A program made the translations under genes and the position numbers. Of a stretch of 64,000 nucleotides of DNA, positions 10,291 to 57,195 are shown piece after piece. The stretch is from Candidatus Saccharimonadales bacterium. Its GTDB lineage: Bacteria; Patescibacteriota; Saccharimonadia; Saccharimonadales; EFPC-124. The stretch lies in the NCBI GenBank assembly GCA_035457485.1, contig DATIBO010000006.1:434659-498658 (forward strand). The letters run 5' to 3'. The stretch's first letter is position 1, and every line of letters starts with the position of its first letter. The notes under the pieces were generated by a model. That model was not told where the DNA came from. It saw only the letters and a program-made list of their open reading frames with translations, and did no database searches.

Positions 10291-10301
10291 TTTTGGGGGA
10301 T

Positions 10302-10339
10302 GTGCCCGGGACCTGCGACGAATCGCTTGTCCCGGGCAC
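10302..10339 (-). terminator. GC-rich hairpin after lipoprotein gene, no U tract
   Basis: GTGCCCGGGAC-16 nt-GTCCCGGGCAC, an 11-bp stem lying 5 nt past the stop. Confidence 0.5.
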
Positions 10340-10343
10340 GCAC

Positions 10344-10988
10344 TTACTGTGGTTTCGCGCAGTCGCCGACCGGGCGGGTGGTGTGAGCGGCCATGGCTGC
10401 ACCTCGGTTGATCGCCTTGATCGACTCGGGCGTCAGCTTTTGGTACCGCTTGAGATCGTCGGTCAGCTCAGCCAGCTTCGCAGCTTCCTTGACCGTGATC
10501 CAGGCCGCGGCACAGTTCGCCGCAGGGGCGAACTCCCACTTGATCATCCCGGCTTGCAGGACCAGCTGGAACCAGATCACACTGCCGGGCAGTTTGATGG
10601 TATCCAGTTCGGTTCGAGTGGTCACCAGGTAGAGCGTCTTGTCATTCTCGGTGATGCACTCACCGAGGAATGGCATGTCACCGGTGATCGTGGTCACGAC
10701 CGTGCCGTTCACGCAGGTCTGCGTGTCGTTGAGGTTCATAAACCTGATCTCGAACTTGAGGTCCAGGTAGGTCTTGGCGACCTCGAGTACCTCGACGGCC
10801 GAGACGTTGTTGCCACCCAGCTTCATGTCACTGGGCGGAACCTCGCCCCCACTTCCGCCGCCGTTGACACTGGCCGAAGCCGTAGGCTTGGCGGTGCTCG
10901 GCGTGACGTTGGGCGTGCAGCCGGTCGCCAGAACGACGACCGCAGCTACTGCCAGCCCGAGCGCAGGCCACTTCGGTGCTACGTTCAC
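10344..10988 (-). CDS. putative lipoprotein, high-GC (actinobacterial-style) gene
   Basis: GTG start preceded by AAGGAGGA. Signal peptide plus lipobox ...AVVVLATGC. GC-rich third positions. The opposite-strand 250-aa ORF has antisense-type composition. Confidence 0.7.
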   Translation of the reverse strand: MNVAPKWPALGLAVAAVVVLATGCTPNVTPSTAKPTASASVNGGGSGGEVPPSDMKLGGNNVSAVEVLEVAKTYLDLKFEIRFMNLNDTQTCVNGTVVTTITGDMPFLGECITENDKTLYLVTTRTELDTIKLPGSVIWFQLVLQAGMIKWEFAPAANCAAAWITVKEAAKLAELTDDLKRYQKLTPESIKAINRGAAMAAHTTRPVGDCAKPQ

Positions 10989-11059
10989 CAGTCCTCCTTA
11001 AAGGCTTGGGACTATTGGCCGATCACTCGACCGGCCGTCCACTGATGTACTGGAGCGAA

Positions 11060-11088
11060 ATTATAACATATAATCTTTATCTTGTAAA
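11060..11088 (-). promoter_or_regulatory. sigma70-like promoter abutting island 1
   Basis: Minus strand: TTTACA (11088..11083), N17, TGT-TATAAT (11065..11060), ending at the AT-to-GC junction. Confidence 0.45.
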
Positions 11089-11126
11089 TAAAAAATACGC
11101 TGTGCAGTTCACAAATTTGTAATTTT

Positions 11127-12119
11127 TTACTTTGCATCGGCTAGCTCAATGGCTTGTTGTGAACTGCCCCACGAAAGAATCACGCCATTGCCACCGTGGC
11201 CGTAGTTGTGGATTATTTTTTTGTCGTCAATTTGCTCACATTCAACTCGCGGTCCGCCAGATCGTATTGGTCTAAAACCCGACATAGCTCCAATAATATT
11301 TTGTTTTTTTAAGGTGCCCGTTGTTAAACTAAACGGATGGCCGGCATGCTCTAGTGCCTGTGCTATTCCGTTAAAAACGTATTCTTTCTCGGCGGAAGTT
11401 ATCGTTAAATCAAAGTTGTCCTTTATGTAAGAGGCGCCGATGTAGGTCTCATTTTTGCGCGGCGCAATTATGTGATCGTCAAATGATAGTACGTGATTTA
11501 AACCCTGGGTTGGCTTTAGGCGGAGAATCACACCTTTTACAGGCATTAAAGATTCATCGCTAAAGATTGACGCACCACAGCCGAGGCAGTTAAAAACCGT
11601 ACTTTGGGGTAAGTTTAAGATCTGTCGCTTGTTTACGAATGTTTTTTGTCTTAGTTTGCCACCCATGGCTACAAATTTTTTGCCGAGTCGCGGCAAGTAA
11701 GCAAGAGGATTAATCATTATGGTTTCGAAACTGAGCATATGGGTATAGCCAAGTGGTAAGTTCGCACGCTTAGTGATTTTAAGGTTAGGTAATACGTCAA
11801 AAAAGTATGATGGCACAAAGCCGCTTCTCGCCAGTTCATAGTTTTGAATTTTTGTAATGTCATGAGCCGGGTTGGATATTTCGCTAAATCTTTTGTGTGA
11901 ATACAAGAACCATTTTTTTAGAGTTTTTTCAAAGCTGTGGTCAATACCGTCGCCAAGCCAAATTGGATAAAATTGTGCTCCTGCAACATGACTGACTAAG
12001 TTGGTAAAATCACTGGCATAAATTGTTACGTCTGCTTTCGGAAATTTTTCGAGCAACAGTACGCCGGTTGTAAGTCCAATAACCCCCGACCCTAAAATTG
12101 CAAAGTTTCTACCTTTCAT
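11127..12119 (-). CDS. D-amino-acid oxidase family FAD-dependent oxidoreductase
   Basis: N-terminal ILGSGVIGLTTG dinucleotide fold and C-terminal HNYGHGGNGVILSWGS signature. Confidence 0.75.
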   Translation of the reverse strand: MKGRNFAILGSGVIGLTTGVLLLEKFPKADVTIYASDFTNLVSHVAGAQFYPIWLGDGIDHSFEKTLKKWFLYSHKRFSEISNPAHDITKIQNYELARSGFVPSYFFDVLPNLKITKRANLPLGYTHMLSFETIMINPLAYLPRLGKKFVAMGGKLRQKTFVNKRQILNLPQSTVFNCLGCGASIFSDESLMPVKGVILRLKPTQGLNHVLSFDDHIIAPRKNETYIGASYIKDNFDLTITSAEKEYVFNGIAQALEHAGHPFSLTTGTLKKQNIIGAMSGFRPIRSGGPRVECEQIDDKKIIHNYGHGGNGVILSWGSSQQAIELADAK

Positions 12120-12706
12120 TTTAATGAAAACACAAGCTCTAAAAATATATTGTCGGTCATATCTTGTCGCTTTGTTGTTGTAAAAGTTAGCGTTTGGTCG
12201 AGTTTAAAACCGTGTTTTTTAAAATATTCAGCTTGAACGTTGGCTAGGGGCCAGCTTTCTGCATTGCGGTTGGCAATATCGGTACTGTCTATGATCAGTT
12301 TGCCGTCGCTTGTCAACATGCTTTTAAGGGCCGTCGCAATTTTAGTCAATGGATATTCGTTTTTAAACCAAGTAAAAGGAAGGCTAGTGTAGATGTAGTT
12401 GTACTTGTCGGATTCGGCTTTAGTAAAGTCACCTAAAATTACGTTGCTGTTTTTGGCTTCACGAACTGCGATATTGTATTGATGCGAGTCTATCTCTATT
12501 CCGTCGCATGACCCACCGATCTGAGTAATAACGCGCGGTATAGTCCCAACGCCGCAGGCCGGATCGATTCCGCGCAAGCCACCGTGATTTAAGCCGAGTT
12601 TTTTTGCGGTGATTTTGATAACCTCATCCGGAACAATAAAAAGCGGATTTGATTTTGTGTCTTTTGGAATATGTGCCTTGCCTTCGATAATATACATGGG
12701 ATACAT
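12116..12706 (-). CDS. class I SAM-dependent methyltransferase (possible nucleic-acid N-methylase)
   Basis: Motif I GIDPACGVGT. Possible motif IV YTSLPF. Confidence 0.6.
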   Translation of the reverse strand: MYPMYIIEGKAHIPKDTKSNPLFIVPDEVIKITAKKLGLNHGGLRGIDPACGVGTIPRVITQIGGSCDGIEIDSHQYNIAVREAKNSNVILGDFTKAESDKYNYIYTSLPFTWFKNEYPLTKIATALKSMLTSDGKLIIDSTDIANRNAESWPLANVQAEYFKKHGFKLDQTLTFTTTKRQDMTDNIFLELVFSLK

Positions 12707-12747
12707 AGACTATAGATAGAACGCAAGGCCATGTTAAACTGTCTCTG

Positions 12748-13545
12748 ATGTCTGACAACAACGACAAAATAGTTAGAATGATGAAGCAGTACGGTTTGTC
12801 CAGTGCCGAAGCTGTTATTTACATCGAACTTTTGAGCGGCCCATCAACTCATTTAAAGTTGAGCCGAAGAACAGGAATTACAAGAAGTCGTGTTTATCAC
12901 GTTGTAGAACTTTTAGAGAAACGTGGTCTAGCGGTTAAGTTTATGGATGACACAGGCTCTTTTGTTAAGGCTAGCGATCCTAACAATTTTGAAATTGAAC
13001 TGACCGCGCAAGAGCAGAAGCTAAAAGAGCGACGAGAGTTGCTGAATGAACTTATCCCAGAGTTATTGTCGGTTCAAAAAAATGATTCAGGATTGTTTTC
13101 GGTCAAGGCTTATGAAGGCGAATCCGGGTTTAGGCAAATGGCCTGGCACGAACTAAAGGCAAAAAATGAAATTCTATGTTTTGGCTACGCCGAAGTAGAA
13201 GTGTTAATTAATGACCACCGATGGTCGGAGTTGCATCGCCAAATGACAGTTGAGGCTGGATACAAGATTCGTGAGATTGTAAATTATGATTCTAAGAGTA
13301 GTATTAGATCTTTCACTGCCAACGACGAGTATTTAAAGAGGTACGAGTGTAGGGCAATTCCTAAAGAGACGGTATCGTTGAGTAATCAGATTGTAATTTA
13401 CAATAACGTTGTTAATACTTATCACTGGCGTGAAGGTGTGCAGATTGGTGTTGAAATAATCAGTGATAGTTATTCTCAAACTATGAGGGCGGTTTTTGAG
13501 CAGTTCTGGGGTTTGGCTGAGCCGGTGGAGATCACTAAAGAATAA
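12748..13545 (+). CDS. TrmB family transcriptional regulator
   Basis: N-terminal HTH GLSSAEAVIYIELLSGPSTHLKLSRRTGITRSRVYHVVELLEKRGL. Confidence 0.8.
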   Translation: MSDNNDKIVRMMKQYGLSSAEAVIYIELLSGPSTHLKLSRRTGITRSRVYHVVELLEKRGLAVKFMDDTGSFVKASDPNNFEIELTAQEQKLKERRELLNELIPELLSVQKNDSGLFSVKAYEGESGFRQMAWHELKAKNEILCFGYAEVEVLINDHRWSELHRQMTVEAGYKIREIVNYDSKSSIRSFTANDEYLKRYECRAIPKETVSLSNQIVIYNNVVNTYHWREGVQIGVEIISDSYSQTMRAVFEQFWGLAEPVEITKE

Positions 13546-13586
13546 TCTGTTCAGATCGGGTAATGATCTGTATAATTGTATTGCAT

Positions 13587-13660
13587 GGCACGTTGGCCGA
13601 GGAGTTAGGCAAGGGTCTGCAAAACCCTGTACACCGGTGCGACTCCGGTACGTGCCTCCA
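13587..13660 (+). tRNA. tRNA-Cys (GCA), CCA encoded, atypical T-loop
   Basis: Acceptor GGCACGT/ACGTGCC. Anticodon arm AGGGT-CTGCAAA-ACCCT. T arm ACCGG-TGCGACT-CCGGT. TATAAT at 13571-13576. Confidence 0.8.
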
Positions 13661-13691
13661 GGTGATAATTTTAATTGCGGTTTCGCGTTGG

Positions 13692-13735
13692 CGTCCCGCC
13701 ACTATACGGGTTTCGTATAGTGGCGGGACGTTTTT
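13692..13735 (+). terminator. rho-independent terminator after tRNA-Cys
   Basis: 16-bp stem CGTCCCGCCACTATAC / GTATAGTGGCGGGACG, 7-nt loop, then TTTTT. The T run overlaps the stop of the convergent lipoprotein gene. Confidence 0.65.
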
Positions 13736-14277
13736 CAGTTTCGGCTCCGGCTGGCGGTTGGGGCCTGCGTGCTGCTGGTCGAGACCGACGGCAGCGTGAG
13801 CGGCGACTTGAGCAGGCTGTTGCTGAACGTCAGCCACTCATTGCGGAAGAGCTTCTTCGCTTCCGACAGATCCTTGTCGGGGTAGTAGGTCGCGAAGTAG
13901 TCCTCGAACATCGCCTCCTCGGCCGAGCTCGTCTTGAGCCGGCCGCCCGTGAACTGGTTCAGCAGGTACCCGAGCCCGAAGTTCGTCTTGTCCGTCTTGT
14001 TGGACGCGTCGAACTTCTTGGTCAGGTCGACCTGGATCCACTCGCTCTTGCCGATCGGCTCACCGTCCCACTCAGAGCCCTCGCAGGCGTTCGAGCCGGG
14101 AACGTGCGCGCAGTACGCATGAACCTCGTCCACACCGTTCTGGTCGACGTCGGTCGACCAGAGGAAGGTGCGGGTGGTGTCGTTGGTCGGCTGCACGCCA
14201 CAGGCGGCGACCCCCATGCTGAGGATGGCCGCGAAGGCGACCACCAGCGCCTTGAGCCGGTTGCTGATCGGAGACAC
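13735..14277 (-). CDS. putative lipoprotein, high-GC gene
   Basis: GTG start with GAGGA upstream. Signal peptide plus lipobox ...ILSMGVAAC. GC-rich third positions. Confidence 0.7.
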   Translation of the reverse strand: MSPISNRLKALVVAFAAILSMGVAACGVQPTNDTTRTFLWSTDVDQNGVDEVHAYCAHVPGSNACEGSEWDGEPIGKSEWIQVDLTKKFDASNKTDKTNFGLGYLLNQFTGGRLKTSSAEEAMFEDYFATYYPDKDLSEAKKLFRNEWLTFSNSLLKSPLTLPSVSTSSTQAPTASRSRN

Positions 14278-14302
14278 TTGGTGTCCTCGTTTCGTAATTG
14301 AG

Positions 14303-14323
14303 GTCCCGCGACTTTAGCGGGAC
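14303..14323 (-). other. GC-rich hairpin in the 5' UTR of the island 2 gene
   Basis: GTCCCGC-gacttta-GCGGGAC. The stem core matches the hairpin at 13692-13730. Confidence 0.5.
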
Positions 14324-14337
14324 GCACGCAAATATAA

Positions 14338-14365
14338 ATTCTAACATATTTTTATAAAATTACAA
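14338..14365 (-). promoter_or_regulatory. sigma70-like promoter abutting island 2
   Basis: Minus strand: TTGTAA (14365..14360), N16, TAGAAT (14343..14338), just outside the GC-rich segment. Confidence 0.4.
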
Positions 14366-14405
14366 CTTTTAAATTTTTCCTCGAGGAGGTATAATATGCG
14401 GCTAA

Positions 14406-14493
14406 GGGCGAGTGGCGGAATTGGTATACGCGACGGACTTAAAATCCGTTGGCTGAATAAGCCTTGAGGGTTCAAGTCCCTCCTCGCCCACCA
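14406..14493 (+). tRNA. tRNA-Leu (TAA), long variable arm, CCA encoded
   Basis: Acceptor GGGCGAG/CTCGCCC. Anticodon arm ACGGA-CTTAAAA-TCCGT. T arm GAGGG-TTCAAGT-CCCTC. Confidence 0.9.
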
Positions 14494-14512
14494 TGAACTT
14501 ATTAAGGCTAAA

Positions 14513-15001
14513 ATGTCGGAAAAATCTAAAGAATCAACTAAAAATTTAAACGGCGTAAAAGGCTGGCTAGCATTATTTATTGTGGCGATGGGGATTGGGA
14601 TTATCGTTAATCTCCTTTCTTTAACCGAATACTCTGGTGCTTTTGCTGACATTAAAAGTATTCAAAGTGAAATGCCAGAATTTGTTAATGCGATGATTCC
14701 GGCACTTTGGTTTGAAGTTATTCAAAATATAATTCTAATCGCCAGCGCTGCTGCCGTTATAACTTTAATAATTATGCGAAAGTCTGTTGCTAAAATTGGT
14801 GCGATCGCACTTATTTCGGGCGCATTTATATTCGTTCTAGCTGATTATATTTGGGTAGCGTTGATTTTCTCTCAGAACAATCTTGATCTAGGTCTAATCG
14901 AGAGCTCAGGCAGTGACGTTGTAAGAAGTTTGATTACAGCAGCCATTTGGATTCCGTATTTCACTGCCTCTAAACGGGTAAAAGCGACTTTGGTCAAATA
15001 A
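14513..15001 (+). CDS. DUF2569-like membrane protein
   Basis: 162 aa with four predicted TM helices and an N-terminal GVKGWLALF motif. Confidence 0.5.
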   Translation: MSEKSKESTKNLNGVKGWLALFIVAMGIGIIVNLLSLTEYSGAFADIKSIQSEMPEFVNAMIPALWFEVIQNIILIASAAAVITLIIMRKSVAKIGAIALISGAFIFVLADYIWVALIFSQNNLDLGLIESSGSDVVRSLITAAIWIPYFTASKRVKATLVK

Positions 15002-15055
15002 CTATAAAGTGCTGCCTTTTAGTGCTACAATACTACTGTAAATAAGGACTTTTTT

Positions 15056-15613
15056 ATGACTTTGACTTGGATTTTGATTATAGTTGCGGTTATTTTAGTG
15101 ATCGTTGTGATTGCAATATACAACGGTTTAGTTAAGCTTAAGATTCGCACCGAGGAAGCCTGGAGCGATATTACAGTTCAACTTAAGAGGCGAATGGATT
15201 TAATTCCAAACCTTGTTAATGCTGTAAAAGGTTACGCAAAGCACGAAAAAGAAGTTTTTGAAAACGTAACAAAAGCGCGCGCAGACGTACTGGGTGCTAA
15301 TGGCGTAAAAGAGACGGCCAAAGCTGAAAATCAATTTGAGCAGACTTTAAAAAGTTTGTTTGCAGTCGCGGAAAACTATCCACAACTTCGCGCTACCGAA
15401 AACTTTCAAAAGCTTCAGGATGAGCTAACTGACACCGAAGACAAAATCATGGCGTCGCGACGCTTTTATAATGGTGCAGTACGCGAGCTAAACACTAAAA
15501 CCGACACTTTTCCTAGCAATATGATTGCCAACGCATTTGGTTTTAAAAAGCGCGACTTTTTTGAAGTAGAAAACATGGCCGACGTGGAAAAGCCTGTCGA
15601 AGTTAAACTGTAG
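15056..15613 (+). CDS. lemA: LemA family protein
   Basis: N-terminal TM helix, YNGLV...AWSDI.VQLKRR.DLIPNLV...YA.HE...F and RRFYN motifs. Confidence 0.9.
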
Positions 15614-15619
15614 TTAAAA

Positions 15620-16492: not shown

Positions 16493-16494
16493 AT

Positions 16495-20113: not shown

Positions 20114-20279
20114 TTTAGCTTTCGCGTGGCGCGTTTTTCGCTTTTGCTCCATTTTGCTTGCACCATAAGCGTAATAATGATTAAATAAATACAAGCTGGT
20201 GCGCTAAGAGGTTCTTGGCGCGATAGGCAAAATAAAAATGTAGCAAAAAGAGCCTCGGGTGGGCGCGCATCGAAGCGAA

Positions 20280-29672: not shown

Positions 29673-30080
29673 ATGAAGTTATCTTTTGTTAAACCGGTTT
29701 ATGCTCACTGTGATATACCTTGTGGCATTTACGAAACCGACACGATGCGTCACTCGGCGGATACTTGCTTAAGAATGATTGAAAAGATCAACGATTTGCC
29801 TGATAACCAAGGTGAAAAGTCAGATGACCACAATAACTTTGTGCGTATGGTTATAAACAAAGAGAAGCACGCTGAACTTTGCAAAGAACAGATCTACATT
29901 TTGTGGAGTGATTATTTTAAGCCTGAGCACTTGCAAAAATTTCCAAAATTACATGAAACAATGTGGCAAGCGGCCAAGCAGTGTAGTAAGGTGAAGCAAA
30001 CGTTAAGTGCAGACGAAGCTAAAAAACTGATTGACATCGTGCACGAAATCGCACATATATTTGAGGACTCAAAGAAATAA
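29673..30080 (+). CDS. sodN: nickel-containing superoxide dismutase precursor
   Basis: An 11-aa leader MKLSFVKPVYA is followed by the Ni-hook HCDIPCGIY. Confidence 0.9.
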   Translation: MKLSFVKPVYAHCDIPCGIYETDTMRHSADTCLRMIEKINDLPDNQGEKSDDHNNFVRMVINKEKHAELCKEQIYILWSDYFKPEHLQKFPKLHETMWQAAKQCSKVKQTLSADEAKKLIDIVHEIAHIFEDSKK

Positions 30081-30081
30081 T

Positions 30082-30384
30082 ATGTTTTTATTAAGAAGAG
30101 TCAACGGCGCTAGCATGCATCCAAATTTACCACACGGTAAATTGATTTTAGCTTCTAAAATCCGAAAACCCAGAGTGGGAGACGTCGTAGTTGTTAAGCA
30201 TCACAGTGTTGAGGTTTTAAAGCGTGTACATGATCTTAAAAACGGGCTAGTCTACTTATTGGGTGATAATCCAGATGAGAGCACTGATAGTCGGCATTAT
30301 GGTTGGCTGCCGGTAGAACGAATTAAAGCGGTAGTATTAGGAGCGAATAATGGTCAAATCGACACCAGCGCCGAAGCTGAATAA
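30082..30384 (+). CDS. sodX: Ni-SOD maturation protease (S26 signal-peptidase family)
   Basis: GASMHPNL serine motif, GDNPDESTDSRHYG, located immediately after sodN. Start moved to the ATG at 30082. Confidence 0.8.
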   Translation: MFLLRRVNGASMHPNLPHGKLILASKIRKPRVGDVVVVKHHSVEVLKRVHDLKNGLVYLLGDNPDESTDSRHYGWLPVERIKAVVLGANNGQIDTSAEAE

Positions 30385-30841: not shown

Positions 30842-30917
30842 TGGCGAGTGGCCAAGTTGGTAAGGCGTCGGTTTCTGGCACCGAAGATCGAAGGTTCGAG
30901 TCCTTCCTCGCCAGCCA
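30842..30917 (+). tRNA. tRNA-Gln (CTG), CCA encoded
   Basis: Acceptor TGGCGAG/CTCGCCA. Anticodon arm TCGGT-TTCTGGC-ACCGA. T arm GAAGG-TTCGAGT-CCTTC. Confidence 0.9.
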
Positions 30918-30967: not shown

Positions 30968-31266
30968 GTATTTCGACCCGGATTTCATTTTCCATTACAT
31001 CCTCCTTAATGTTTGCGGATTCCACTTACAAAATCCTTCAGAAAAAGTTTTGCAAGGCACAGTTCAGTATTTTGCGGAGAATCCAGCCACGACGCTTCAT
31101 CCTTGCCACTGCACCGACCTCCAGTCGAAGGTGGCGCTGTCAAAAGTCGCAGACGTTCGAGAAGTCGGCTCCGGACTCGCGCTTGAGTACTCATAAAGTT
31201 GGATCATGTTCTGCCCCGGTTGGTGGGGGTGTGTGAGAGTACTCCAGAAATGGGGTACTTTTTTGT

Positions 31267-31295
31267 TTGCAAATTTGATATTTATATTGTATTAT
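31267..31295 (+). promoter_or_regulatory. near-consensus sigma70 promoter inside island 3
   Basis: TTGCAA (31267-31272), N17, TATTAT (31290-31295). About 160 nt upstream of the 98-aa ORF. Confidence 0.5.
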
Positions 31296-31765: not shown

Positions 31766-31795
31766 GGCGGACGTGCATTTTGCGTCCGCCTTTTC
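31766..31795 (+). terminator. rho-independent terminator shared by convergent island 3 genes
   Basis: GGCGGACG-tgcattttg-CGTCCGCC followed by TTTT. Confidence 0.7.
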
Positions 31796-31863: not shown

Positions 31864-33219
31864 CTACTTGGTGTTTCTAAGGCCCTCTTCTAGTGCCTTG
31901 TGGATCCCGGCCCTGACGAAGCGAGGCAGCGAGTTGAATTGCTCGGCCGACTCCGGCATGGGGCTCATGTGTGGGAGTACATAGGTCTTATCCGGCGCTA
32001 GGCGAGCCAGGATCTGCAAACCAGTACTCGCTTCGAACTTGCGGATCTCTTCGCGCTGCCGCTCGGTCATGTTGCCCTTGCGAGGATGACCGCACACAAA
32101 GTGCGGGTTCTTCATCTTGGGCTCCAATACGGGCTGCCGCGCTCCCGTTTCGGTGACTCGCGTTCGCTTGGTGCGCCGCGGGATTGCCGTCCACGGAACT
32201 GTTGTCTTGCTAATGATGGAGCTGCTCTTGAAGACGGGAATACCATCCTGGACCACGGTTTTCGGGCCACGGCTACTCCCGGCGGTCTCTTTGACCGTTA
32301 CGAGGTCGTGATAGACCTGGGCGATCATGGCTACAACATAACTTCCGATCGCAGGCGTCCGGGGCATGTTTTCTGACGGCCCCAGGATTGCTTCCTCGTC
32401 GACTACGGTAAAATAGCTTCCTTGTTCTGACGAGTCAACTCTTGCCAGGATCGACATGTACGGGCTTTTAGGCTTAGGAACTACCTTGAGCCACATTCCG
32501 TTGATGTTGCCGGCCGAGAGCTTGATTTGCACGCCTTGCGGGTGCACGGTGTAGCATTGGTTCTCGAGCGCAGCTGCCAGGGTGGCTTCTACGAATTCGA
32601 GATACTCGTCGCCCCGATACGGTAAATCCAGGCTCCATTCGCTTGGGGTCGGCACCATCCAGGTGTCATCCTGCCCAACGTGATGCATAATGCTAGGCAG
32701 CATCAGAGGGAAGGTTGATACCAGAAGGGCGATGTCGTAGGGTTCGGTCATCTTGTGGCCGAGCTCGCGGAATGCCGGGATGTTGTTCTTGATCCCGACC
32801 AAAATCTTGGTTTCGCTGCCGATCATCGCTGTGATGCAGTTGACGATCAAAGAGCAGATCAATCCGAGGTTCTTTTTCGAGTCGTTCGAAGAGAGCGCGA
32901 TCACGAGCCAAACTGCAGTGTTGAGCTCCTCGATCTCGTAGTACGACTTAGTCTCGACGATTCGAGCTGACTCGGTTGTAACGAGCTCGAAGAACGAGTC
33001 CAGGAATTCACTCTGACTGCCAGCGGCGTACGAAATCGCGACTGATTCCACGATTTCTAAAAGCTGGTCGATTACCGGATCGCTTCTGTCGCTCGGCTGG
33101 TAGTAAACCAGGCTAGGATCTTCTGCGAAGAAAGCTCCAATCTGAGCGCCAGTAACGTCGGTCAAGAGTCGTGGATTTTTCCACACAACTTCCTCCAAAG
33201 GTCGTGCGTCCAACTCCAT
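31864..33219 (-). CDS. hypothetical protein (451 aa), elevated-GC gene, no recognisable domain
   Basis: Longest ORF in the island, and the nested ORFs on both strands are shorter. The ATG at 33219 has no SD and abuts TATAAT. An alternative GTG at 33186 follows GGAGGAA. The C-terminal third is basic (PRRTKRTRV) and contains HFVCGHPRKG. Confidence 0.65.
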   Translation of the reverse strand: MELDARPLEEVVWKNPRLLTDVTGAQIGAFFAEDPSLVYYQPSDRSDPVIDQLLEIVESVAISYAAGSQSEFLDSFFELVTTESARIVETKSYYEIEELNTAVWLVIALSSNDSKKNLGLICSLIVNCITAMIGSETKILVGIKNNIPAFRELGHKMTEPYDIALLVSTFPLMLPSIMHHVGQDDTWMVPTPSEWSLDLPYRGDEYLEFVEATLAAALENQCYTVHPQGVQIKLSAGNINGMWLKVVPKPKSPYMSILARVDSSEQGSYFTVVDEEAILGPSENMPRTPAIGSYVVAMIAQVYHDLVTVKETAGSSRGPKTVVQDGIPVFKSSSIISKTTVPWTAIPRRTKRTRVTETGARQPVLEPKMKNPHFVCGHPRKGNMTERQREEIRKFEASTGLQILARLAPDKTYVLPHMSPMPESAEQFNSLPRFVRAGIHKALEEGLRNTK

Positions 33220-33287
33220 ATTATAAAATGTAAATCAATTTTTGTACAGATGTTGTTTATGCGGCGAATTGAGCGTTTAATTAAAGA

Positions 33288-46351: not shown

Positions 46352-46353
46352 CT

Positions 46354-47353: not shown

Positions 47354-47404
47354 GACTTTTTTATATCATAATTCAGTGAGTTTGCGGTATACTTATTACC
47401 AGAT

Positions 47405-50874: not shown

Positions 50875-50909
50875 ATGTTATTATTAAAAAGCTAGCTTGA
50901 GGGGAGAAT

Positions 50910-51446: not shown

Positions 51447-51521
51447 AAACTACAATATGTGGGGTATTGCGCTCAAAGATAAGCGCTATATACTGGTAAA
51501 TAGTCTTGGAGGGGCTTAAAA

Positions 51522-51785
51522 ATGAAAAAAATAACAGTATACACAACAAACTCTTGCGCGTACTGCGAAATGGTAAAGCGTTTTTTAAACGGCAAAGGTG
51601 TTGATTTTAATGTCGTCAACTTGGATGAGGAGCCGAGTGAGGTTCGTCAAAAAGTGATTGAAATGAGCGGCGCAATGACTGTGCCTGTGATTGTAGTAGA
51701 AAAAGAACTCGAAACCGGCGAAACCGAAGTTATGGATATAACTGTGGGCTGGAATCCTGGCAAATTAGCTTCGGCGGTGGCTTAG
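51522..51785 (+). CDS. glutaredoxin/NrdH-like redoxin
   Basis: CAYC active site and TVPVI motif. Confidence 0.8.
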   Translation: MKKITVYTTNSCAYCEMVKRFLNGKGVDFNVVNLDEEPSEVRQKVIEMSGAMTVPVIVVEKELETGETEVMDITVGWNPGKLASAVA

Positions 51786-51786
51786 T

Positions 51787-52746
51787 ATGAGTAAGGTTTA
51801 CGATGTAGTTATGATTGGAGCGGGTCCTTCGGCTTTGGCGGCAGCCGTTTACACGACTCGCGAAGACTTAAAAACGGTTTTAATCGAAAAAGGGCCAGTC
51901 GGCGGCCTGGCTGCGGTTACCGACTTAGTGGATAATTATCCAGGCTTTGCAAAAGGAATCTCAGGCTTGGAACTAGCACAAAATTTTCAGGCGCACGCTG
52001 AGCGTTTTGGAGCTCAGATCGAATATGGCGAAGTTACTCAAATTATTGATGGCCCTATTAAAACCGTAAAAACAACCGAAGGCGATTTTAACGCTAAGGC
52101 AGTTTTGATTGCGACTGGATCTTCTTATAAACAGCTTGGAATTCCAGGCGAAAAAGAGTATTACGGTCGTGGAGTTCACTACTGCGCAACATGTGACGGT
52201 GCATTTTACCGTGACAAAAAACTGGCGGTGGTTGGCGGCGGCAACTCAGCGGTTCAAGAAGCATTATTTTTGCTGAGATTCGCGACCCACATAGACTTAT
52301 TAGTGCGCAGTGAGGTTAAAGCCTCCGAGATCCTAAAAGATGATCTTAAAAAAGCGGTTGATGCCGGTAAAATCACAATCCACACAAACACCACAACCAA
52401 CGAGATTATTGGTGAGGATAACAAGGTTATAAAAGTCAAAGTTACTAAAGAGGGTAAAGCGACCGATCTTGCCGTAGATGGTGTATTTGTTTTTATTGGT
52501 TTGATCCCGAACACCAGATTTTTAAAAAATAGTGGCGTTGAACTTGATCAATTTGGTTTTGTTGTTACTGATAAAGACTTACAAACGGCCGTACCAGGAA
52601 TATTTTGCAGTGGCGACGTAAGAAGTGGAGCAACAATGCAGATAGCTAGTGCGGCAGGTGAAGGCGCGACTGCTGCGTTAAAAATGCGTGAACACCTCGA
52701 GATGCTGGAACGAAAAGTCGTTACCCCGATGTCGGAAAAAGTCTAA
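51787..52746 (+). CDS. trxB: thioredoxin-disulfide reductase
   Basis: GAGPSALAAAVY FAD motif, redox CATCDG, and GGGNSAVQEA NADPH motif. Confidence 0.95.
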   Translation: MSKVYDVVMIGAGPSALAAAVYTTREDLKTVLIEKGPVGGLAAVTDLVDNYPGFAKGISGLELAQNFQAHAERFGAQIEYGEVTQIIDGPIKTVKTTEGDFNAKAVLIATGSSYKQLGIPGEKEYYGRGVHYCATCDGAFYRDKKLAVVGGGNSAVQEALFLLRFATHIDLLVRSEVKASEILKDDLKKAVDAGKITIHTNTTTNEIIGEDNKVIKVKVTKEGKATDLAVDGVFVFIGLIPNTRFLKNSGVELDQFGFVVTDKDLQTAVPGIFCSGDVRSGATMQIASAAGEGATAALKMREHLEMLERKVVTPMSEKV

Positions 52747-52753
52747 TTTGCTA

Positions 52754-52783
52754 TTGATACACACTTAGTTGGTATGTAAAAAT
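52754..52783 (+). promoter_or_regulatory. sigma70-like promoter abutting island 4
   Basis: TTGATA (52754-52759), 17-18 nt, TG-T-AAAAAT (52775-52783). GC-rich sequence starts at 52784. Confidence 0.4.
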
Positions 52784-52824
52784 GGGGTTGCGAGTCCGAC
52801 CCTCGGACTTCGTGAAGGGAGAAA

Positions 52825-53082
52825 ATGGTGGGTACTCAGGTGCAGGATCCGCTGGCAGGCGGGGTCGAGGTCAAAGGCTTCCGTGTTGACCTCACCCACG
52901 CGCAGTGGTACAAGTCGACCCGGAGTGGGCCGAACTGCGACAACTGTGTCGAGGTCGCCTTCGTCGGTGGGGCCATCGCCCTGCGCGACAGCAAGAACCC
53001 GACCGGGCCGGCGCTGATCTTCACCCCGGCCGAGTGGGACGCCTTCGTCGAGGGAGCTAAGGACGGCGAGTTCGACATCTGA
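52825..53082 (+). CDS. DUF397 domain protein (BldB/WhiJ-associated type), high-GC gene
   Basis: WYKSTRSGPNCDNCVEVAFVGGAIALRDSKNPTGPALIFTPAEWDAFVEGAKDGEFD matches the DUF397 pattern W.KSS.S....CVEVA....V.VRDSK.P.GP.L.F....W..F. GGGAG RBS. Confidence 0.8.
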   Translation: MVGTQVQDPLAGGVEVKGFRVDLTHAQWYKSTRSGPNCDNCVEVAFVGGAIALRDSKNPTGPALIFTPAEWDAFVEGAKDGEFDI

Positions 53083-53096
53083 ATCCGCCCTTCAAC

Positions 53097-53137
53097 CCTG
53101 ACGGCAGCGCGCTCTCATTCGAGCAGCTGCCGTCAGG
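53097..53137 (+). terminator. GC-rich hairpin after DUF397 gene, no U tract
   Basis: CCTGACGGCAGC-17 nt-GCTGCCGTCAGG, a 12-bp stem. Confidence 0.5.
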
Positions 53138-53143
53138 CAAAAC

Positions 53144-53815
53144 CTAAGCCTTTATTTTGTCGGGCCGGTTTGTAATAATTCCGTCGACACCTATTTTTTT
53201 AAGAGACTGGGCGCGGCTAGGTGAATCGATCGTCCAGGCAAAAACAATTAAATTTTTATCCTTAGCTTTGGCCATAACGCGCTTTGTAATCGTTAAATAA
53301 TTAAAAACGACGGTACTTAGGGGAACCTTTGCTTTTAAAAAGCTGTAAGAGAATGCGCCGTGAATCAAACCGAGTTTAATCTTCGGGTTTAGCTTGTGTA
53401 CTTTCTCGAGGATTTTTAAATTAAATGAAGTAACTAAAAAATCTTCGTACGCTGCGTCTTTTTTAACTAACCGTTCAATATTTTCAACAACAGCCTCTTC
53501 GCAGCCACTACTTTTTATTTCGATATCGGCTTTGGCTTTGGGGTAAATTACATCTAAAGCCTCTTGTAGTGTTGGGATTTTTTGGTCAGCTTTGCCAACG
53601 TTTATTAATTTTGAATATGGAGTTTTTTTAATACTATTCCATTTAAAACCGGTACGCAGGGTGTTTGGATCGTGAATTACTACAACTTTGCCGTCTTTTG
53701 TGGCGCGAACGTCAAATTCAATCATATCTACGCCGGCTTGTAGTGCAGCCTCAAAGCCCTTGACTGTGTTTTCGGGCGCTATGCCGGCTGCACCTCGGTG
53801 GCCAATTATTTGCAT
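53144..53815 (-). CDS. glycerophosphodiester phosphodiesterase
   Basis: GHRGAAGIAPENT...IEFDVRATKDGKVVVIHD motifs. Confidence 0.85.
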   Translation of the reverse strand: MQIIGHRGAAGIAPENTVKGFEAALQAGVDMIEFDVRATKDGKVVVIHDPNTLRTGFKWNSIKKTPYSKLINVGKADQKIPTLQEALDVIYPKAKADIEIKSSGCEEAVVENIERLVKKDAAYEDFLVTSFNLKILEKVHKLNPKIKLGLIHGAFSYSFLKAKVPLSTVVFNYLTITKRVMAKAKDKNLIVFAWTIDSPSRAQSLKKIGVDGIITNRPDKIKA

Positions 53816-53925
53816 ACTATTATTATACTACGTAAAAACACGTCCGCGGGACTTTGGCGGGCAGGTACCTCATATTTTACCCTTGCTAAAATCTGGTATA
53901 ATGTTAAAAAACTAAGGAGTAATAA

Positions 53926-54453
53926 ATGCCTGATTTTAATAAAGTCCTGACCCCGGGTGACGTTAATAGTGGAATGATTAATACTGTGATTGAAATTCCG
54001 CAAGGTTCGTTCTTGAAAATCGAATGGAATCGTAAGGTCGCTGGATTTCAGCTTGACCGCGTTGAGCCATCGATCTTTGCAAAGCCAGTAAATTATGGCT
54101 TTATTCCGCAGACCCTAGACGAGGACGGCGATGAGCTCGACACTTTGGTTGTTAGCGACGAGCCAATCCCGACTGGCGTTTTTACAGAAGCTAAAATTAT
54201 TGGTATTTTGAATTTCGAAGACGACGGCGAAGCTGACCATAAAGTTGTATGTGTACCTGCAGATGATCGAAACACTGGCGATTCGATCAATAGCCTTGAT
54301 GACCTTGGCGCGCGCTGGAAGCAAAAGATCGAGCACCACTTTACCCACTACAAAGATCTAAAAAAACCAGGCTCAACCAAGGTTTTGGGTTGGGGCGACG
54401 CCGAAGAAGCTAAAAAAATCATCAACGAGTGTATCGAACGCTTCGGTAAATAA
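53926..54453 (+). CDS. ppa: inorganic pyrophosphatase (family I)
   Basis: NYGFIPQTL..DGD.LD and DHKV motifs. Confidence 0.9.
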   Translation: MPDFNKVLTPGDVNSGMINTVIEIPQGSFLKIEWNRKVAGFQLDRVEPSIFAKPVNYGFIPQTLDEDGDELDTLVVSDEPIPTGVFTEAKIIGILNFEDDGEADHKVVCVPADDRNTGDSINSLDDLGARWKQKIEHHFTHYKDLKKPGSTKVLGWGDAEEAKKIINECIERFGK

Positions 54454-54556
54454 TCAGTAAACGACTTTTAAGCTGAAAGAAGGACGCTTTGCTTGAAGTT
54501 TTTGCAATCTGGGCTACAATTAATCCAAAGAGGTAACGCTAATTTGGGGGTAGGTT

Positions 54557-55573
54557 ATGAAAATTAGAGTCGCGATCAACGGATTCGGACGGATCGGGCG
54601 CACAGCTTTTAAAGTTGCATTAGAGCGCTCAGATATAGAGATTGTTGCAGTCAATGATTTAACAGATGTCAAGACTTTGGGCCATTTACTAAAATACGAC
54701 AGCACATACGGGGTTTACCAGCATGACGTTAAGGCGTCGGACGGTGGCTTAACTGTGAATGGTCACCATTTTAAGGTTTTAGCCGAAAAAGACCCAGCAA
54801 ACTTACCTTGGGGAGCACATGGTGTTGATGTTGTGATCGAAAGTACTGGGCTTTTTGTTGATCCATCTAAGGCTAAAGCTCATATCGATCCTGCTGGGGC
54901 TAAAAAAGTTGTTATATCGGCGCCGGCCAAGGGCGAAGGTTCGAGCACGATCGTTTTAGGCGTTAACGAGGATGCAATTGCGGAATCTAAAGAAGTTGTA
55001 AGTAACGGTAGTTGTACTACAAACTGCGTAACGCCGGTGGCCGCGGTGATGGAAAGTCATTTGGGCGTAGAAAAAGCCATGATGACAACCGTTCATAGTT
55101 ATACGTCTGACCAACGCTTGCTAGATGCACCGCACAAAGATTTGCGTCGAGCTCGTTCTGCTGCCGAAAATATTGTTCCTACGACAACTGGTGCCGCCAA
55201 AGCTGTAGCCGAAGCACTACCTGCGTTTAAAGGAATCTTTGATGGGTTGGCGATTCGTGTTCCAACCCCTGTTGTAAGCTTGAGTGACTTTGTATTTTTG
55301 ACAAAACGCAACACTACAATAGAGGAAGTCAACGAGATTTTTAAGAAGGCATCCAAGGAGCCTTATTACCAAGGAATTTTGGCGGTCACGGATGAGCCAC
55401 TGGTTTCAAGTGATCTAAAAGGTAATAGCCACTCGGCTATTGTTGATTTAGGTCTAACGAATGTCGTTGGTGGAAATATGGTTAAGGTCGTTGCATGGTA
55501 TGACAACGAATGGGGCTACAGTAACCGTTTAGTTGAGCTAGTCGCTGATTTAGGAAAGACGTTACACAAATAA
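54557..55573 (+). CDS. gap: type I glyceraldehyde-3-phosphate dehydrogenase
   Basis: INGFGRIGR, the catalytic SCTTNC and WYDNEWGYS. Confidence 0.95.
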   Translation: MKIRVAINGFGRIGRTAFKVALERSDIEIVAVNDLTDVKTLGHLLKYDSTYGVYQHDVKASDGGLTVNGHHFKVLAEKDPANLPWGAHGVDVVIESTGLFVDPSKAKAHIDPAGAKKVVISAPAKGEGSSTIVLGVNEDAIAESKEVVSNGSCTTNCVTPVAAVMESHLGVEKAMMTTVHSYTSDQRLLDAPHKDLRRARSAAENIVPTTTGAAKAVAEALPAFKGIFDGLAIRVPTPVVSLSDFVFLTKRNTTIEEVNEIFKKASKEPYYQGILAVTDEPLVSSDLKGNSHSAIVDLGLTNVVGGNMVKVVAWYDNEWGYSNRLVELVADLGKTLHK

Positions 55574-56022
55574 TGAAGATTTACTTAGCGTCGGACCATG
55601 CTGGTTTTCAGTTGAAAGAAAAAGTTGAGGCGCATTTACTAAAAGCTGGCTATGATGTGGAAGATGTAGGCAACAAACACTTAGATCCAGATGACGATTA
55701 TCCTCAGTTTGCCTATGCTGCGGCAGCTAAAATTTTAGGCAGCGAGCATGACGACGCCAAGGCGATTCTAATTTGCGGTAGTGGACAAGGTATGTGCATT
55801 GCGGCAAACCGTGTGCGTGGGATTAGAGCTGCGCTTTGTTGGGACGAAGCCAGCGCGCGCGAAACCCGCAATGACAACGACAGTAACGTTTTATGTGTAC
55901 CAGCTCGTGTTTTGCAAACTGATGAAGCTTTTAAAATGATTGATACTTGGATTAAAACCCCATTCTCAAATGCACCACGGCATGCGCGACGGCTGCGTGA
56001 AATCGAGGAGCTTTACGGATGA
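55573..56022 (+). CDS. rpiB: ribose-5-phosphate isomerase B
   Basis: LICGSGQGMCIAANR and NVLC motifs. Confidence 0.9.
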   Translation: MKIYLASDHAGFQLKEKVEAHLLKAGYDVEDVGNKHLDPDDDYPQFAYAAAAKILGSEHDDAKAILICGSGQGMCIAANRVRGIRAALCWDEASARETRNDNDSNVLCVPARVLQTDEAFKMIDTWIKTPFSNAPRHARRLREIEELYG

Positions 56023-56660
56023 TAGCTCCGTGCGTCACTGCTGTTGATGCAGCTCAATATCGTGAGCAAATGGCTCGGATAGCCCCATTCGCTACAAGGA
56101 TTCACATTGACGTAAGTGATGGGCAATTTGCTCCTATTAAGCTTGTAAATCCAGCTCAAGTCTATTGGCCCGAAGGCGCTTCGGCTGATATTCATTTGAT
56201 GGTTCGTAATCCTATAGAACACCTCGAAACTTTAATTGGAATGAATCCGAATTTGGTTATTATTCATGCTGAATCCCAGGGCGATTTGCTAGGAATGATC
56301 CGTCAGCTTAGGGCGGTGCGCATTAAAACCGGCGTGGCACTTCTGCAACAAACTCTACCAGAGCAGGCCAAAGAATTGGTCGCTGATTGTGATCATATTT
56401 TGATTTTTAGTGGAGACTTAGGACATTTCGGCGGCAGCGCAGATCTGAGTTTGCTTAGTAAGATCTCGCAGATTAAATCTATAAACCCCAACGCTGAGGT
56501 TGCGTGGGACGGCGGAGCCAGCCTCGAAAATGTCGCACAGCTTAGTGGTGGCGGCGTTGATGTGATAAATGTCGGTGGGGCGATTCAAAAATCAGAAGAT
56601 CCGGCAGGTGCTTATAAAGCTTTAGTCGAGGCGAGCAAAGTTATTGCGCCTCAAGTTTGA
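56019..56660 (+). CDS. rpe: ribulose-phosphate 3-epimerase-like protein (divergent)
   Basis: HIDVSDGQFAP, DIHLMV and AWDGGA are equivalents of the RPE motifs. Confidence 0.65.
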   Translation: MIAPCVTAVDAAQYREQMARIAPFATRIHIDVSDGQFAPIKLVNPAQVYWPEGASADIHLMVRNPIEHLETLIGMNPNLVIIHAESQGDLLGMIRQLRAVRIKTGVALLQQTLPEQAKELVADCDHILIFSGDLGHFGGSADLSLLSKISQIKSINPNAEVAWDGGASLENVAQLSGGGVDVINVGGAIQKSEDPAGAYKALVEASKVIAPQV

Positions 56661-56689
56661 TAATTGATTTACGCTCAGGAGTGCGGGTT

Positions 56690-56714
56690 GGGCGCGAGCA
56701 TTACGCTCGCGCCC
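56690..56714 (-). terminator. GC-rich hairpin after island 5 gene, no U tract
   Basis: GGGCGCGAGC-attac-GCTCGCGCCC, extended by an outer GCGGG/CCCGC pairing. Confidence 0.5.
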
Positions 56715-56733
56715 GCCTCCCGCGAAAGCGCAG

Positions 56734-57135
56734 TCAGCTGATCGTTCGAGCGTTGGTCATCAGACCGTACCCGAGCAGCAGTGTCGCGATGTGGGCGATC
56801 AAGGACTCAGCGGCCTTGAGAACCTGTTCGGCGTCACCGGGTCCGGTGTAGCTGTTCTTGAGTAGGTCGACGTCGTAACGGTCGCTGAGCGCACGAAGGA
56901 TGGTGATGGATCCGTTGGTCATGGCGACCAGCGTCTTCCAGTCCTCTCCGAATGTGAGCTCGAGTACGAAGTTTTTCGAGTCCAGGCTGCCCTGAAGCAG
57001 CGCTGCACGGATGACTTCGGGGTTCAGGAGAAGTCGGGGATCGGTGAGATAGTTCACCAATAACCCAACGACTCGCTTGAACGTTTTGACCCGATTGGCA
57101 TTGCTGCCAGGTTCGAGCTCCAAGATTGCGGCCAT
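56734..57135 (-). CDS. hypothetical protein (133 aa), high-GC gene
   Basis: ATG at 57135 preceded by GGAGAGGAG. The track start at 57195 lies in the AT-rich promoter and adds a compositionally different 20-aa extension. No family recognised. Confidence 0.55.
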   Translation of the reverse strand: MAAILELEPGSNANRVKTFKRVVGLLVNYLTDPRLLLNPEVIRAALLQGSLDSKNFVLELTFGEDWKTLVAMTNGSITILRALSDRYDVDLLKNSYTGPGDAEQVLKAAESLIAHIATLLLGYGLMTNARTIS

Positions 57136-57166
57136 TTGCCACTCACTCCTCTCCTGAGCGAAATAT

Positions 57167-57195
57167 ATTATATAACTTTTTTTACGTTTATTCAA
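57167..57195 (-). promoter_or_regulatory. sigma70-like promoter abutting island 5
   Basis: Minus strand: TTGAAT (57195..57190), N17, TATAAT (57172..57167). Confidence 0.45.

Follow-up and report, generated by a model that had tools for sequence, protein, structure and literature searches.

Horizontal gene transfer involving bacteria of the Candidate Phyla Radiation (CPR) has been documented in activated sludge, where CPR metagenome-assembled genomes (MAGs) record 84 transfer events, into or out of CPR genomes, of fragments of 518–5,730 bp (PMC10031880). Here we analyse five short GC-rich segments, cassettes 1 to 5 (c1–c5), in a 64,000-nt stretch of DNA (positions 434,659 to 498,658 of contig DATIBO010000006.1, forward strand; hereafter the window) that forms part of an 889,392-bp contig in a third-party NCBI MAG of Candidatus Saccharimonadales bacterium (locus tags VLA77_). 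The cassettes probably entered a soil Saccharimonadales epibiont as foreign high-GC DNA in five separate events, at least one of them with a Micromonosporaceae source. Like the transferred fragments in sludge CPR, they are short pieces of comparable size (0.35–2.1 kb) that carry one or a few open reading frames (ORFs), many of them hypothetical, in a reduced epibiont genome. They differ in having junctions resolved to the nucleotide, empty sites in relatives and a single assignable donor family, and in the presence, for each gene, of an abutting recipient-type promoter and a donor-type terminator. They constitute a well-documented and unusually clean case of a known process, horizontal transfer into a CPR epibiont.

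Saccharibacteria are naturally competent via ComEC, and all cultivated members of the group grow on Actinobacteria (PMC10633639). Jaffe et al. found little evidence of transfer between cultured Saccharibacteria–host pairs (PMC8406219), and our literature search found no paper linking Saccharibacteria with Micromonosporaceae hosts. The closest described systems for the individual parts of the cassettes are the XRE–DUF397 (WhiJ/BldB-type) gene pairs of Actinomycetota (PMC10294661, PMC10364602, PMC8269248), in which the BldB-type proteins do not bind DNA and act via protein partners (PMC10294661), and the I-shaped terminators of GC-rich bacteria, which lack a U tract (PMC8269248).

Composition, gene order and assembly of the cassettes

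The window has a mean GC content of 44.2%. When it was profiled in 300-nt bins along its whole length, exactly five segments reached 0.55–0.64 GC and the remainder lay at about 0.34–0.52; in 20-nt steps, the transitions at the segment edges span 10–20 nt. Each segment carries one or two ORFs, whose GC content at third codon positions (GC3) is 0.81 (c1), 0.92 (c2), 0.66 and 0.69 (c3a and c3b), 0.85 (c4) and 0.68 (c5), compared with 0.26–0.56 for the native ORFs (n = 66). For synonymous codon usage, we computed a log-likelihood ratio that contrasts Micromonosporaceae with native genes. The native set spans −1.65 to −0.64 and the donor set 0.39 to 1.22, and the cassette ORFs score 0.99 (c2), 0.77 (c4), 0.55 (c1), 0.26 (c5) and about 0 (c3a and c3b). 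Because GC3 and codon scores fall outside the native range in every case, all six ORFs are foreign in composition, those of c3 and c5 less strongly; c1, c2 and c4 lie within the Micromonosporaceae range, and c3 and c5 may come from other donors or be older. The initial annotation of this DNA had described five sharply bounded high-GC segments of foreign composition with GC-rich third positions, and each element of that description holds. By GC content, GC3 and synonymous-codon likelihood alike, the segments deviate from their surroundings as horizontally acquired islands do.

We compared gene order with that of relatives, among which the GAPDH of the source MAG reaches at most 72–73% identity to any GTDB species representative, with the best matches coming from soil and other environmental Saccharibacteria. 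The order FKBP–Grx–TrxB–(GDPD)–PPase–GAPDH–RpiB–Rpe–TktN–TktC–FBA–PfkB is conserved across Saccharibacteria. At the site of c4, the gap between TrxB and GDPD is 0 nt in one relative (L008) and 48 nt in another (L003) versus 397 nt in the window, and at the site of c5 eight relatives have gaps between Rpe and TktN that range from a few nucleotides to a few tens, versus about 580 nt in the window. In a second set of relative loci, anchored on LemA, tRNA-Cys(GCA) and tRNA-Leu(TAA) are separated by 2, 7, 8, 17, 18 and 25 nt in six relatives versus 745 nt in the window, where c2 intervenes. The c1 island begins 1 nt past the stop codon of a native pentapeptide-repeat gene; the sole relative that retains this gene, L092, has an ABC transporter at the corresponding position and lacks c1. 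No homologue of a cassette protein was found in about 100 related Saccharibacterial loci. Thus the search for empty sites that had been proposed with the first description finds them for c2, c4 and c5, which on gene order are insertions relative to the relatives and which share with acquired islands their absence from the syntenic site, and finds c1 missing from L092; the loci compared covered these four sites. We also considered whether the TrxB–GDPD interval is a hot spot for foreign DNA in relatives, and rejected this idea: the extra 2 kb found there consists of ordinary genes of native composition. Two of the loci compared carry unexpected taxonomic labels. L005 (DATLCF010000002.1, 557 kb), labelled Nevskiaceae, has a GAPDH 73% identical to that of the window together with the full Saccharibacterial gene order, and L018, labelled Bdellovibrionales, has a GAPDH that is 60% identical; both labels look like MAG misclassifications.

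Chimeric assembly had been named as a concern from the outset. A second assembly of the same DNA is available in Logan, where a different assembler applied to a single run (SRR25158331) gave contigs of 19.8, 6.8 and 81.9 kb. Over the stretches compared, these contigs match the window at 100% identity across both junctions of c1, c2, c4 and c5, with both c1 junctions on contig L165 and the window from 13604 onwards, c2 included, on contig L166; both c3 proteins are encoded on the 81.9-kb contig. The possibility that high-GC reads were joined artificially to a low-GC genome draws on the facts that the sequence is a MAG, that the evidence stays at the level of assemblies rather than reads, and that Logan contigs break inside tRNA-Cys and tRNA-Ala. 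However, each of the five segments returns, on either side, to its exact syntenic position, in an intergenic location and with a correctly oriented promoter, and the junctions are repeated at 100% identity by the different assembler on contigs of 6.8–82 kb. Five chimeric joins back to the same syntenic positions in two assemblies are not credible, and we give an artefact next to no probability. The contig ends themselves lie inside tRNA-Cys (13604–13633) and tRNA-Ala (about 20367), which suggests branching of the assembly graph caused by co-occurring related strains, possibly including alleles that lack c2.

Cassette 4 and its donor family

The c4 protein matches the DUF397 family over profile positions 1–55 of 55 (87.9 bits against a cut-off of 24, E = 5e-25) and also matches the phage family phrog_10815 (E = 3e-21). 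With its own copy set aside, the best 119 protein matches listed are 77–89% identical to it. Among the 16 named proteins in the top 120 matches, 15 are from Micromonosporaceae (Catellatospora, Micromonospora, Pilimelia, Plantactinospora and Rhizomonospora) and one is from an unclassified 'Actinomycetes bacterium'. The Micromonosporaceae orthologues share 83–89% protein identity with c4, which keeps all 50 of the 50 columns that are invariant among them. At the DNA level, c4 is 79–82% identical to four donor-type contigs, over coding sequence only (52865–53090). We looked for closer donor DNA among these contigs; the best reaches only about 82%, again confined to the coding sequence. On this protein and DNA similarity the donor of c4 is a member of the Micromonosporaceae, and c4 is the sole cassette with a demonstrable donor. 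Amelioration of c4 is not visible, because its GC3 of 0.88 is as high as that of the donor genes (0.73–0.89). The original description of the genes as recently captured therefore survives only as a relative term, given that the closest sampled donor DNA is only about 80–82% identical.

The genomic context of the donor-type genes indicates what may have been transferred. In the donor loci L082 and L083, one from Catellatospora and the other from a second genome, the HTH_31+DUF5753 (XRE) gene lies upstream of the DUF397 gene and overlaps it; a GC-rich hairpin without a U tract comes after the DUF397 gene, and then a convergent gene. XRE–DUF397 units with the same hairpin and convergent layout were seen by Term-seq in Streptomyces (PMC8269248). 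Cassette 4 resembles these pairs in encoding a full DUF397 domain and in placing the U-less hairpin at its 3′ end so that it faces a convergent gene, as in the donors. It differs in that the XRE partner is gone, the gene upstream being thioredoxin reductase, and in that the Met-Glu start of the donor proteins is replaced by a 13-residue extension that begins at an ATG behind a GGGAG site. The gene stands alone, with no WhiJ-like regulator within the window, and is thus an orphan DUF397 copy without an obvious partner in the epibiont. A further close homologue lies on a Logan contig (L084; SRR30224751, 1,383 bp, 68% GC) among four or five overlapping genes of 65–74 codons and has no XRE partner; this context looks more phage- or plasmid-like than the chromosomal pairs do.

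Promoters, hairpins and insertion sites

The coordinates of the cassettes and their features are collected in the table.

Table. Cassettes, genes and candidate signals in the window
Feature	Position	Strand	Details
Cassette 1, GC-rich island	10291..11057	−	GC 0.55–0.59 versus 0.44 background
c1 3′ hairpin, 11-bp perfect GC-rich stem, no U tract	10302..10339	−	−31.9 kcal/mol, z −6.4
c1 ORF, 214-aa predicted lipoprotein	10344..10988	−	GTG start; ribosome-binding site AAGGAGGA; signal peptide ending ...LATGC
c1 promoter-like site TTTACA-N17-TATAAT, extended TG	11060..11088	−	11/12 matches, best within 9–15 kb
tRNA-Cys(GCA), left neighbour of c2	13587..13660	+	ARAGORN, Rfam
Cassette 2, entire 745-nt insertion splitting the tRNA-Cys/tRNA-Leu pair	13661..14405		Relatives and Logan
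Hairpin 3′ of c2 ORF, 17-bp perfect stem	13692..13730		−34.3 kcal/mol, z −8.9
c2 ORF, 180-aa predicted lipoprotein, GVAAC lipobox	13735..14277	−	GTG start; GC3 0.92
Small hairpin GTCCCGC-N7-GCGGGAC, c2 5′ untranslated region	14303..14323	−	Stem motif common with the 13692–13730 hairpin
c2 promoter-like sites TTGTAA-N16-TAGAAT and TTTATA-N16-TATATT	14331..14365	−	Promoter scan
Promoter-like site TTTAAA-N16-TATAAT facing tRNA-Leu	14368..14395	+	Same AT-rich tract as the c2 promoters
tRNA-Leu(TAA), right neighbour of c2	14406..14493	+	ARAGORN, Rfam
tRNA-Gln(CTG)	30842..30917	+	ARAGORN, Rfam; 157 nt before the GC-rich part of c3
GC-rich 175-nt stretch, c3 left edge, no convincing ORF	31075..31250		Composition
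c3a promoter-like site TTGCAA-N17-TATTAT	31266..31295	+	AT-rich tract inside the island
c3a ORF, 98 aa	31463..31759	+	GC3 0.66; HSE29470.1
c3a canonical intrinsic terminator, stem then TTTTCT	31766..31790	+	−20.8 kcal/mol, z −5.7
c3b ORF, 451 aa as listed	31864..33219	−	GC3 0.69
c3b promoter-like site TGTACA-N17-TATAAT	33220..33248	−	Abuts GC boundary
c4 promoter-like site TTGATA-N17/18-TAAAAT	52754..52783	+	37-nt AT-rich tract past TrxB stop codon
Cassette 4, GC-rich island between convergent TrxB and GDPD	52784..53137	+	GC 0.64
c4 ORF, 85-aa DUF397 (BldB-like)	52825..53082	+	Pfam PF04149
c4 3′ hairpin, 12-bp GC-rich stem, no U tract	53097..53137	+	−32.3 kcal/mol, z −7.3
Cassette 5, GC-rich island between Rpe and TktN	56672..57160	−	Composition, relatives
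c5 3′ hairpin, 10-bp GC stem, no U tract	56690..56714	−	−21.9 kcal/mol
c5 ORF, 133 aa	56734..57135	−	ATG 57135; ribosome-binding site AGGAGAGGAG; GC3 0.68 measured on the longer listed ORF
c5 promoter-like site TTGAAT-N17-TATAAT	57167..57195	−	Promoter scan

A re-implemented promoter scan yielded 123 promoter-like sites on both strands of the window. All six cassette ORFs have a correctly oriented σ70-like site whose −10 box ends 0–13 nt from the GC boundary (3 nt in the case of c1), whereas the background frequency of such adjacency is 1% of all positions and 5% of those where the 40 nt upstream have at most 25% GC. At the sequence level, all six sites have −35 and −10 elements spaced by 16–18 nt. 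This proximity is far beyond chance, although it is partly geometric because the AT-rich tracts are only 37–84 nt long and two of them hold divergent promoters. The initial annotation had reported an abutting, correctly oriented promoter for all but the 451-aa gene, for which it saw only a −10 box; the pattern extends to that gene as well (TGTACA-N17-TATAAT). The six tracts align nowhere beyond the hexamers, and a shared mobile promoter was ruled out on that ground.

At least two of the AT-rich tracts, those at 14326–14405 and 57161–57244, are as new as the cargo, because in relatives the gap within the tRNA pair, like that between Rpe and TktN, is too short to hold a promoter. Each of the two supplies a promoter-like site to the displaced downstream gene (tRNA-Leu and TktN, respectively). 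These tracts cannot be decayed donor DNA while GC3 stayed at 0.92, and hence either they were present in a closer ancestor or promoter and cargo arrived jointly. The idea that the genes were placed under native promoters accordingly needs qualifying: the promoters at the junctions are of recipient type, but the tracts that carry them are new at tRNA-Cys/tRNA-Leu and Rpe/TktN.

When we scanned the whole window for perfect stems of at least 8 bp, the cassette hairpins were the strongest found, and none has a U tract on the strand of the cassette gene. By contrast, the six native terminators checked (4469, 5613, 27419, 28082, 30946 and 36625) all carry T tracts, as had been stated. The cassette hairpins resemble I-shaped terminators in having 10–17-bp GC-rich stems (−22 to −34 kcal/mol) after the stop codon, and the U-less hairpins of the donor DUF397 genes fit a reading of them as actinobacterial terminators. 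The setting differs from that of I-shaped terminators in that the recipient's own terminators have an A tract, stem and T tract, and any termination by the cassette hairpins in the recipient is putative. Folding supports the earlier report of U-less GC hairpins after the genes of c1, c2, c4 and c5. At c2, however, this is not necessarily the sole role of the hairpin, which lacks a U tract on the minus strand and could equally terminate tRNA-Cys because TTTTT follows its stem on the plus strand. No strong hairpin accompanies c3b.

The c2 protein (HSE29449.1) is an ORFan: among 1.84 billion representatives, its matches are itself and one lipoprotein of 25% identity. Its combined content of Ala, Gly, Pro and Arg is 0.23, which resembles native low-GC proteins, compared with 0.37 in donor genes. 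Such a make-up, alongside a GC3 of 0.92 and a GC content at first codon positions of 0.53, would be uncommon in a gene that came from a 70% GC genome. In c2, window positions 13691–13699 and 14317–14325 form a 9-bp inverted repeat, GCGTCCCGC. Other genes have entered the same tRNA-Cys/tRNA-Leu spacer in relatives. In L163 it holds a gene for a 164-aa HNH endonuclease of native composition (5047–5646), and in L144 (4308–5808) it holds an HNH-like ORF together with a GC-rich PG_binding_1+YkuD L,D-transpeptidase gene (GC3 0.79) that has a consensus TTGACA-N17-TATAAT promoter at its AT/GC boundary. L092, a close syntenic relative, carries a different GC-rich gene on the minus strand just upstream of tRNA-Cys (4118–4960), which encodes a 280-aa lipoprotein; thus GC-rich lipoprotein genes recur near tRNA-Cys. 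The spacer is a recurrent insertion site across several lineages.

The two ends of cassette 5 carry a perfect 10-bp inverted repeat, with CGCTCAGGAG at 56672–56681 and CTCCTGAGCG at 57151–57160. One arm overlaps the Shine–Dalgarno region, which would allow the mRNA to pair end to end. The ORF, first listed at 153 aa, is corrected here to 133 aa, the form called by both NCBI and Logan; its NCBI protein is HSE29503. A 9-mer, ATTTCGCTC, occurs only twice in the window, on the minus strand at 11053–11061 and 57156–57164, in both cases directly downstream of TATAAT at a promoter junction (c1 and c5). The neighbouring TktN probably starts at ATG 57245 (MSLTTIQLE..., as in relatives) rather than at 57215; a TTCAAA-N16-TATAAT site lies just upstream and implies a very short leader.

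Of the two cassettes said to sit at tRNA 3′ ends, c2 does so, but the GC-rich part of c3 begins 157 nt past tRNA-Gln and behind a native terminator. The 31075–31250 stretch at the left edge of c3 is parted from the rest of the island by the AT-rich promoter tract and may be a decaying foreign remnant or a separate insertion. The leader of c3a, also 157 nt long, contains no riboswitch, the Rfam matches being four tRNAs only. The c3b gene likely starts at a GTG at codon 12, behind GGAGGA, which would give a protein of 440 aa. In a search of 5.8 billion clusters the sole match of c3b, whose NCBI protein is HSE29471, was itself, and it too is an ORFan. At 29673–30384, a gene for a nickel superoxide dismutase (Sod_Ni) precedes one for an S24/S26 peptidase, both of native composition. 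Such pairs are typical of Actinomycetota and cyanobacteria, and this one may be an older, ameliorated acquisition.

The proteins show no homology to one another, and PADLOC and NCBIfam returned nothing significant for any of them. Pfam, PHROG, NCBIfam, PADLOC and PDB gave no match for c1 (HSE29445.1), and the four family databases gave none for c3a; c3b has no PDB, viral, plasmid or phage match, and c5 has no family, PDB or viral match. Sequence searches of the PDB with c1, c3b and c5 found nothing, and single-sequence AlphaFold models of c3b and c1 have a predicted local distance difference test (pLDDT) score of 34–35 (34 for c3b with AF2). The tentative assignment of c1 and c2 as lipoproteins follows from the lipobox-like ends of their signal sequences (...VVVLATGC and ...SMGVAAC); the only family signal is a lipoprotein model that the signal region matches below threshold.

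Origin and route of acquisition

The simplest route to the cassettes would be uptake of host DNA followed by illegitimate recombination, because Saccharibacteria are competent and attached to Actinobacteria. The Micromonosporaceae donor would then probably be the host itself or an organism living close to it, and donor DNA would enter through the com/type IV pilus competence system and be placed in intergenic spacers. For c4, the source would be a piece of an XRE–DUF397 locus, severed within the DUF397 gene or immediately before it; this piece lost the XRE partner and native start codon and kept the donor-type U-less hairpin. In a streamlined genome of 889 kb, an insertion should persist only if it is transcribed and of use, and this would account for the promoter that each of the six ORFs faces. 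Each gene would be read from a σ70-type promoter in the short AT-rich tract that abuts the foreign DNA, would use its own strong Shine–Dalgarno site and would end at the imported hairpin. In this scheme we infer the uptake route, the expression, the selective benefit and the actinobacterial origin of the other four cassettes.

Several observations weigh against this account. An actinobacterial origin is shown for one of the five cassettes; even searches on the scale of a billion sequences turned up no informative homologue of c2 or c3b, no close relative of c1 was found in IMG/VR or JGI metagenome contigs, and the codon usage of c3 and c5 is only intermediate. Despite its GC3 of 0.92, c2 has a GC content at first codon positions of 0.53 and a low-GC-like amino-acid make-up. 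At the tRNA pair and at Rpe–TktN, where relatives have almost no spacer, the AT-rich promoter tracts are not an ancestral feature, and plain insertion of donor DNA beside an existing promoter fails to explain them. The 10-bp and 9-bp inverted repeats of c5 and c2, and the HNH genes at the tRNA site of two relatives, hint at an element-mediated route. In addition, even the closest relatives share only about 72% GAPDH identity with the window, which sets no more than a loose limit on when the insertions took place. The proposal in the initial annotation that the genes are host-derived or actinobacterial is accordingly upheld for c4 (83–89% identity to Micromonosporaceae) and not for the ORFans c2 and c3b or for c3 and c5, with their intermediate codon usage.

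The same observations could be explained if the foreign DNA came from non-host donors, such as assorted soil bacteria, actinophages or plasmids, and the cassettes were uninformative about the host. We consider this unlikely, although it deserves serious weight: four of the five cassettes lack an assignable donor, c3 and c5 are intermediate in GC3 and codon usage, the DUF397 protein, alone among the cassette proteins, matches a PHROGs family (phrog_10815), and the L084 homologue has a row of small tandem genes, not an XRE gene, as its neighbours. However, tblastn of the other five proteins against 50,697 phage and 72,556 plasmid records found nothing, and three cassette proteins are without a match in IMG/VR; with these scans all blank, we rejected a phage or plasmid origin. 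The closest DUF397 relatives with genome context are chromosomal XRE–DUF397 loci of Micromonosporaceae, and cultivated Saccharibacteria all live on Actinobacteria (PMC10633639).

Alternatively, delivery may have been by a mobile element, with foreign ORFs entering intergenic hot spots after they had been linked to an AT-rich bidirectional promoter tract. One possibility is intronless homing, in which breaks made by free-standing homing endonucleases are repaired with co-conversion of cargo and the endonuclease gene has since been lost; another is a recombinase that reads terminal inverted repeats. The seg and mob genes of phage T4 are examples of free-standing homing endonuclease loci with co-converted cargo. 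The cassettes are similar to such loci in being insertions in spacers between conserved genes, with HNH genes in the same spacer of relatives: an HNH gene in L163 and an HNH-like ORF with GC-rich cargo in L144. L092 has its GC-rich lipoprotein gene beside tRNA-Cys. Joint arrival is also suggested by the new tracts at two sites whose essential downstream gene (tRNA-Leu or TktN) needs a promoter, and further points in its favour are the perfect c5 repeat (a 10-bp match is expected in about 0.8% of random segment pairs), the 9-bp c2 repeat and the restriction of the shared 9-mer to the c1 and c5 promoter junctions. The cassettes differ from homing loci in that no endonuclease gene lies beside any of them, and the link is circumstantial: the HNH genes come from two metagenomic contigs at one site, and BLAST shows no relationship between the two. 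The window contains neither an HNH homologue nor, in its gene lists, any other mobility gene, the promoter tracts share nothing beyond the hexamers, target-site duplications are absent, and c1, c3 and c4 lack inverted repeats. Delivery by an element is thus quite unlikely.

In agreement with the initial annotation, the gene lists covering 7.7–18, 22.4–40.7 and 43.8–60.7 kb contain no integrase or transposase, and no flanking direct repeats are seen; the cassettes also lack tRNA-end repeats, target-site duplications and attC cores. Islands inserted by tyrosine integrases resemble them in that two cassettes adjoin tRNA 3′ ends, but the window has neither an integrase in these lists nor a duplicated tRNA 3′ end at the far border, and its islands are 10–100 times smaller than usual. 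Nor do the cassettes correspond to insertion sequences or miniature inverted-repeat transposable elements, as inverted repeats occur only at c5 (10 bp) and c2 (9 bp), with no target-site duplication or transposase. Integron-type cassettes at secondary sites (a promoterless ORF with a 3′ attC hairpin) share the form of a small single ORF of mostly unknown function with a 3′ imperfect-to-perfect hairpin and an external promoter, yet their probability is negligible: no hairpin is flanked by paired RYYYAAC and GTTRRRY cores, the stems are perfect where attC sites typically have extrahelical bases, the cassettes lie scattered rather than arrayed, the annotated parts of the window contain no tyrosine recombinase, and in the donor loci such hairpins are ordinary terminators after DUF397.

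A more far-reaching reading is that soil Saccharimonadales have a dedicated means of host-gene capture, in which ORFs are mounted on AT-rich bidirectional promoter modules and moved to recurrent intergenic hot spots, the tRNA-Cys/tRNA-Leu spacer among them. Breaks made by homing endonucleases, or a recombinase that recognizes short terminal inverted repeats, would start the insertion. We regard this as improbable. If it were true, the orphan BldB-like DUF397 protein, a copy of the partner of a developmental regulator of the host, might interfere with WhiJ-type regulation in the host. That the lipoproteins or the BldB-like protein serve in host mimicry, as first suggested, is speculative.

Under the favoured account, separate acquisitions of foreign DNA by a competent epibiont, the locus has three implications. 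It illustrates domestication in a streamlined genome, with a recipient-type promoter at the junction and the donor ribosome-binding site and terminator kept. The recurrent insertions at tRNA-Cys/tRNA-Leu, together with the HNH genes in two lineages, provide a mechanistic lead that thousands of CPR genomes are available to check. Finally, hardly any host of an environmental Saccharibacterium has been identified, and a transfer from Micromonosporaceae resolved to the nucleotide would offer a testable host prediction for an uncultured soil lineage.

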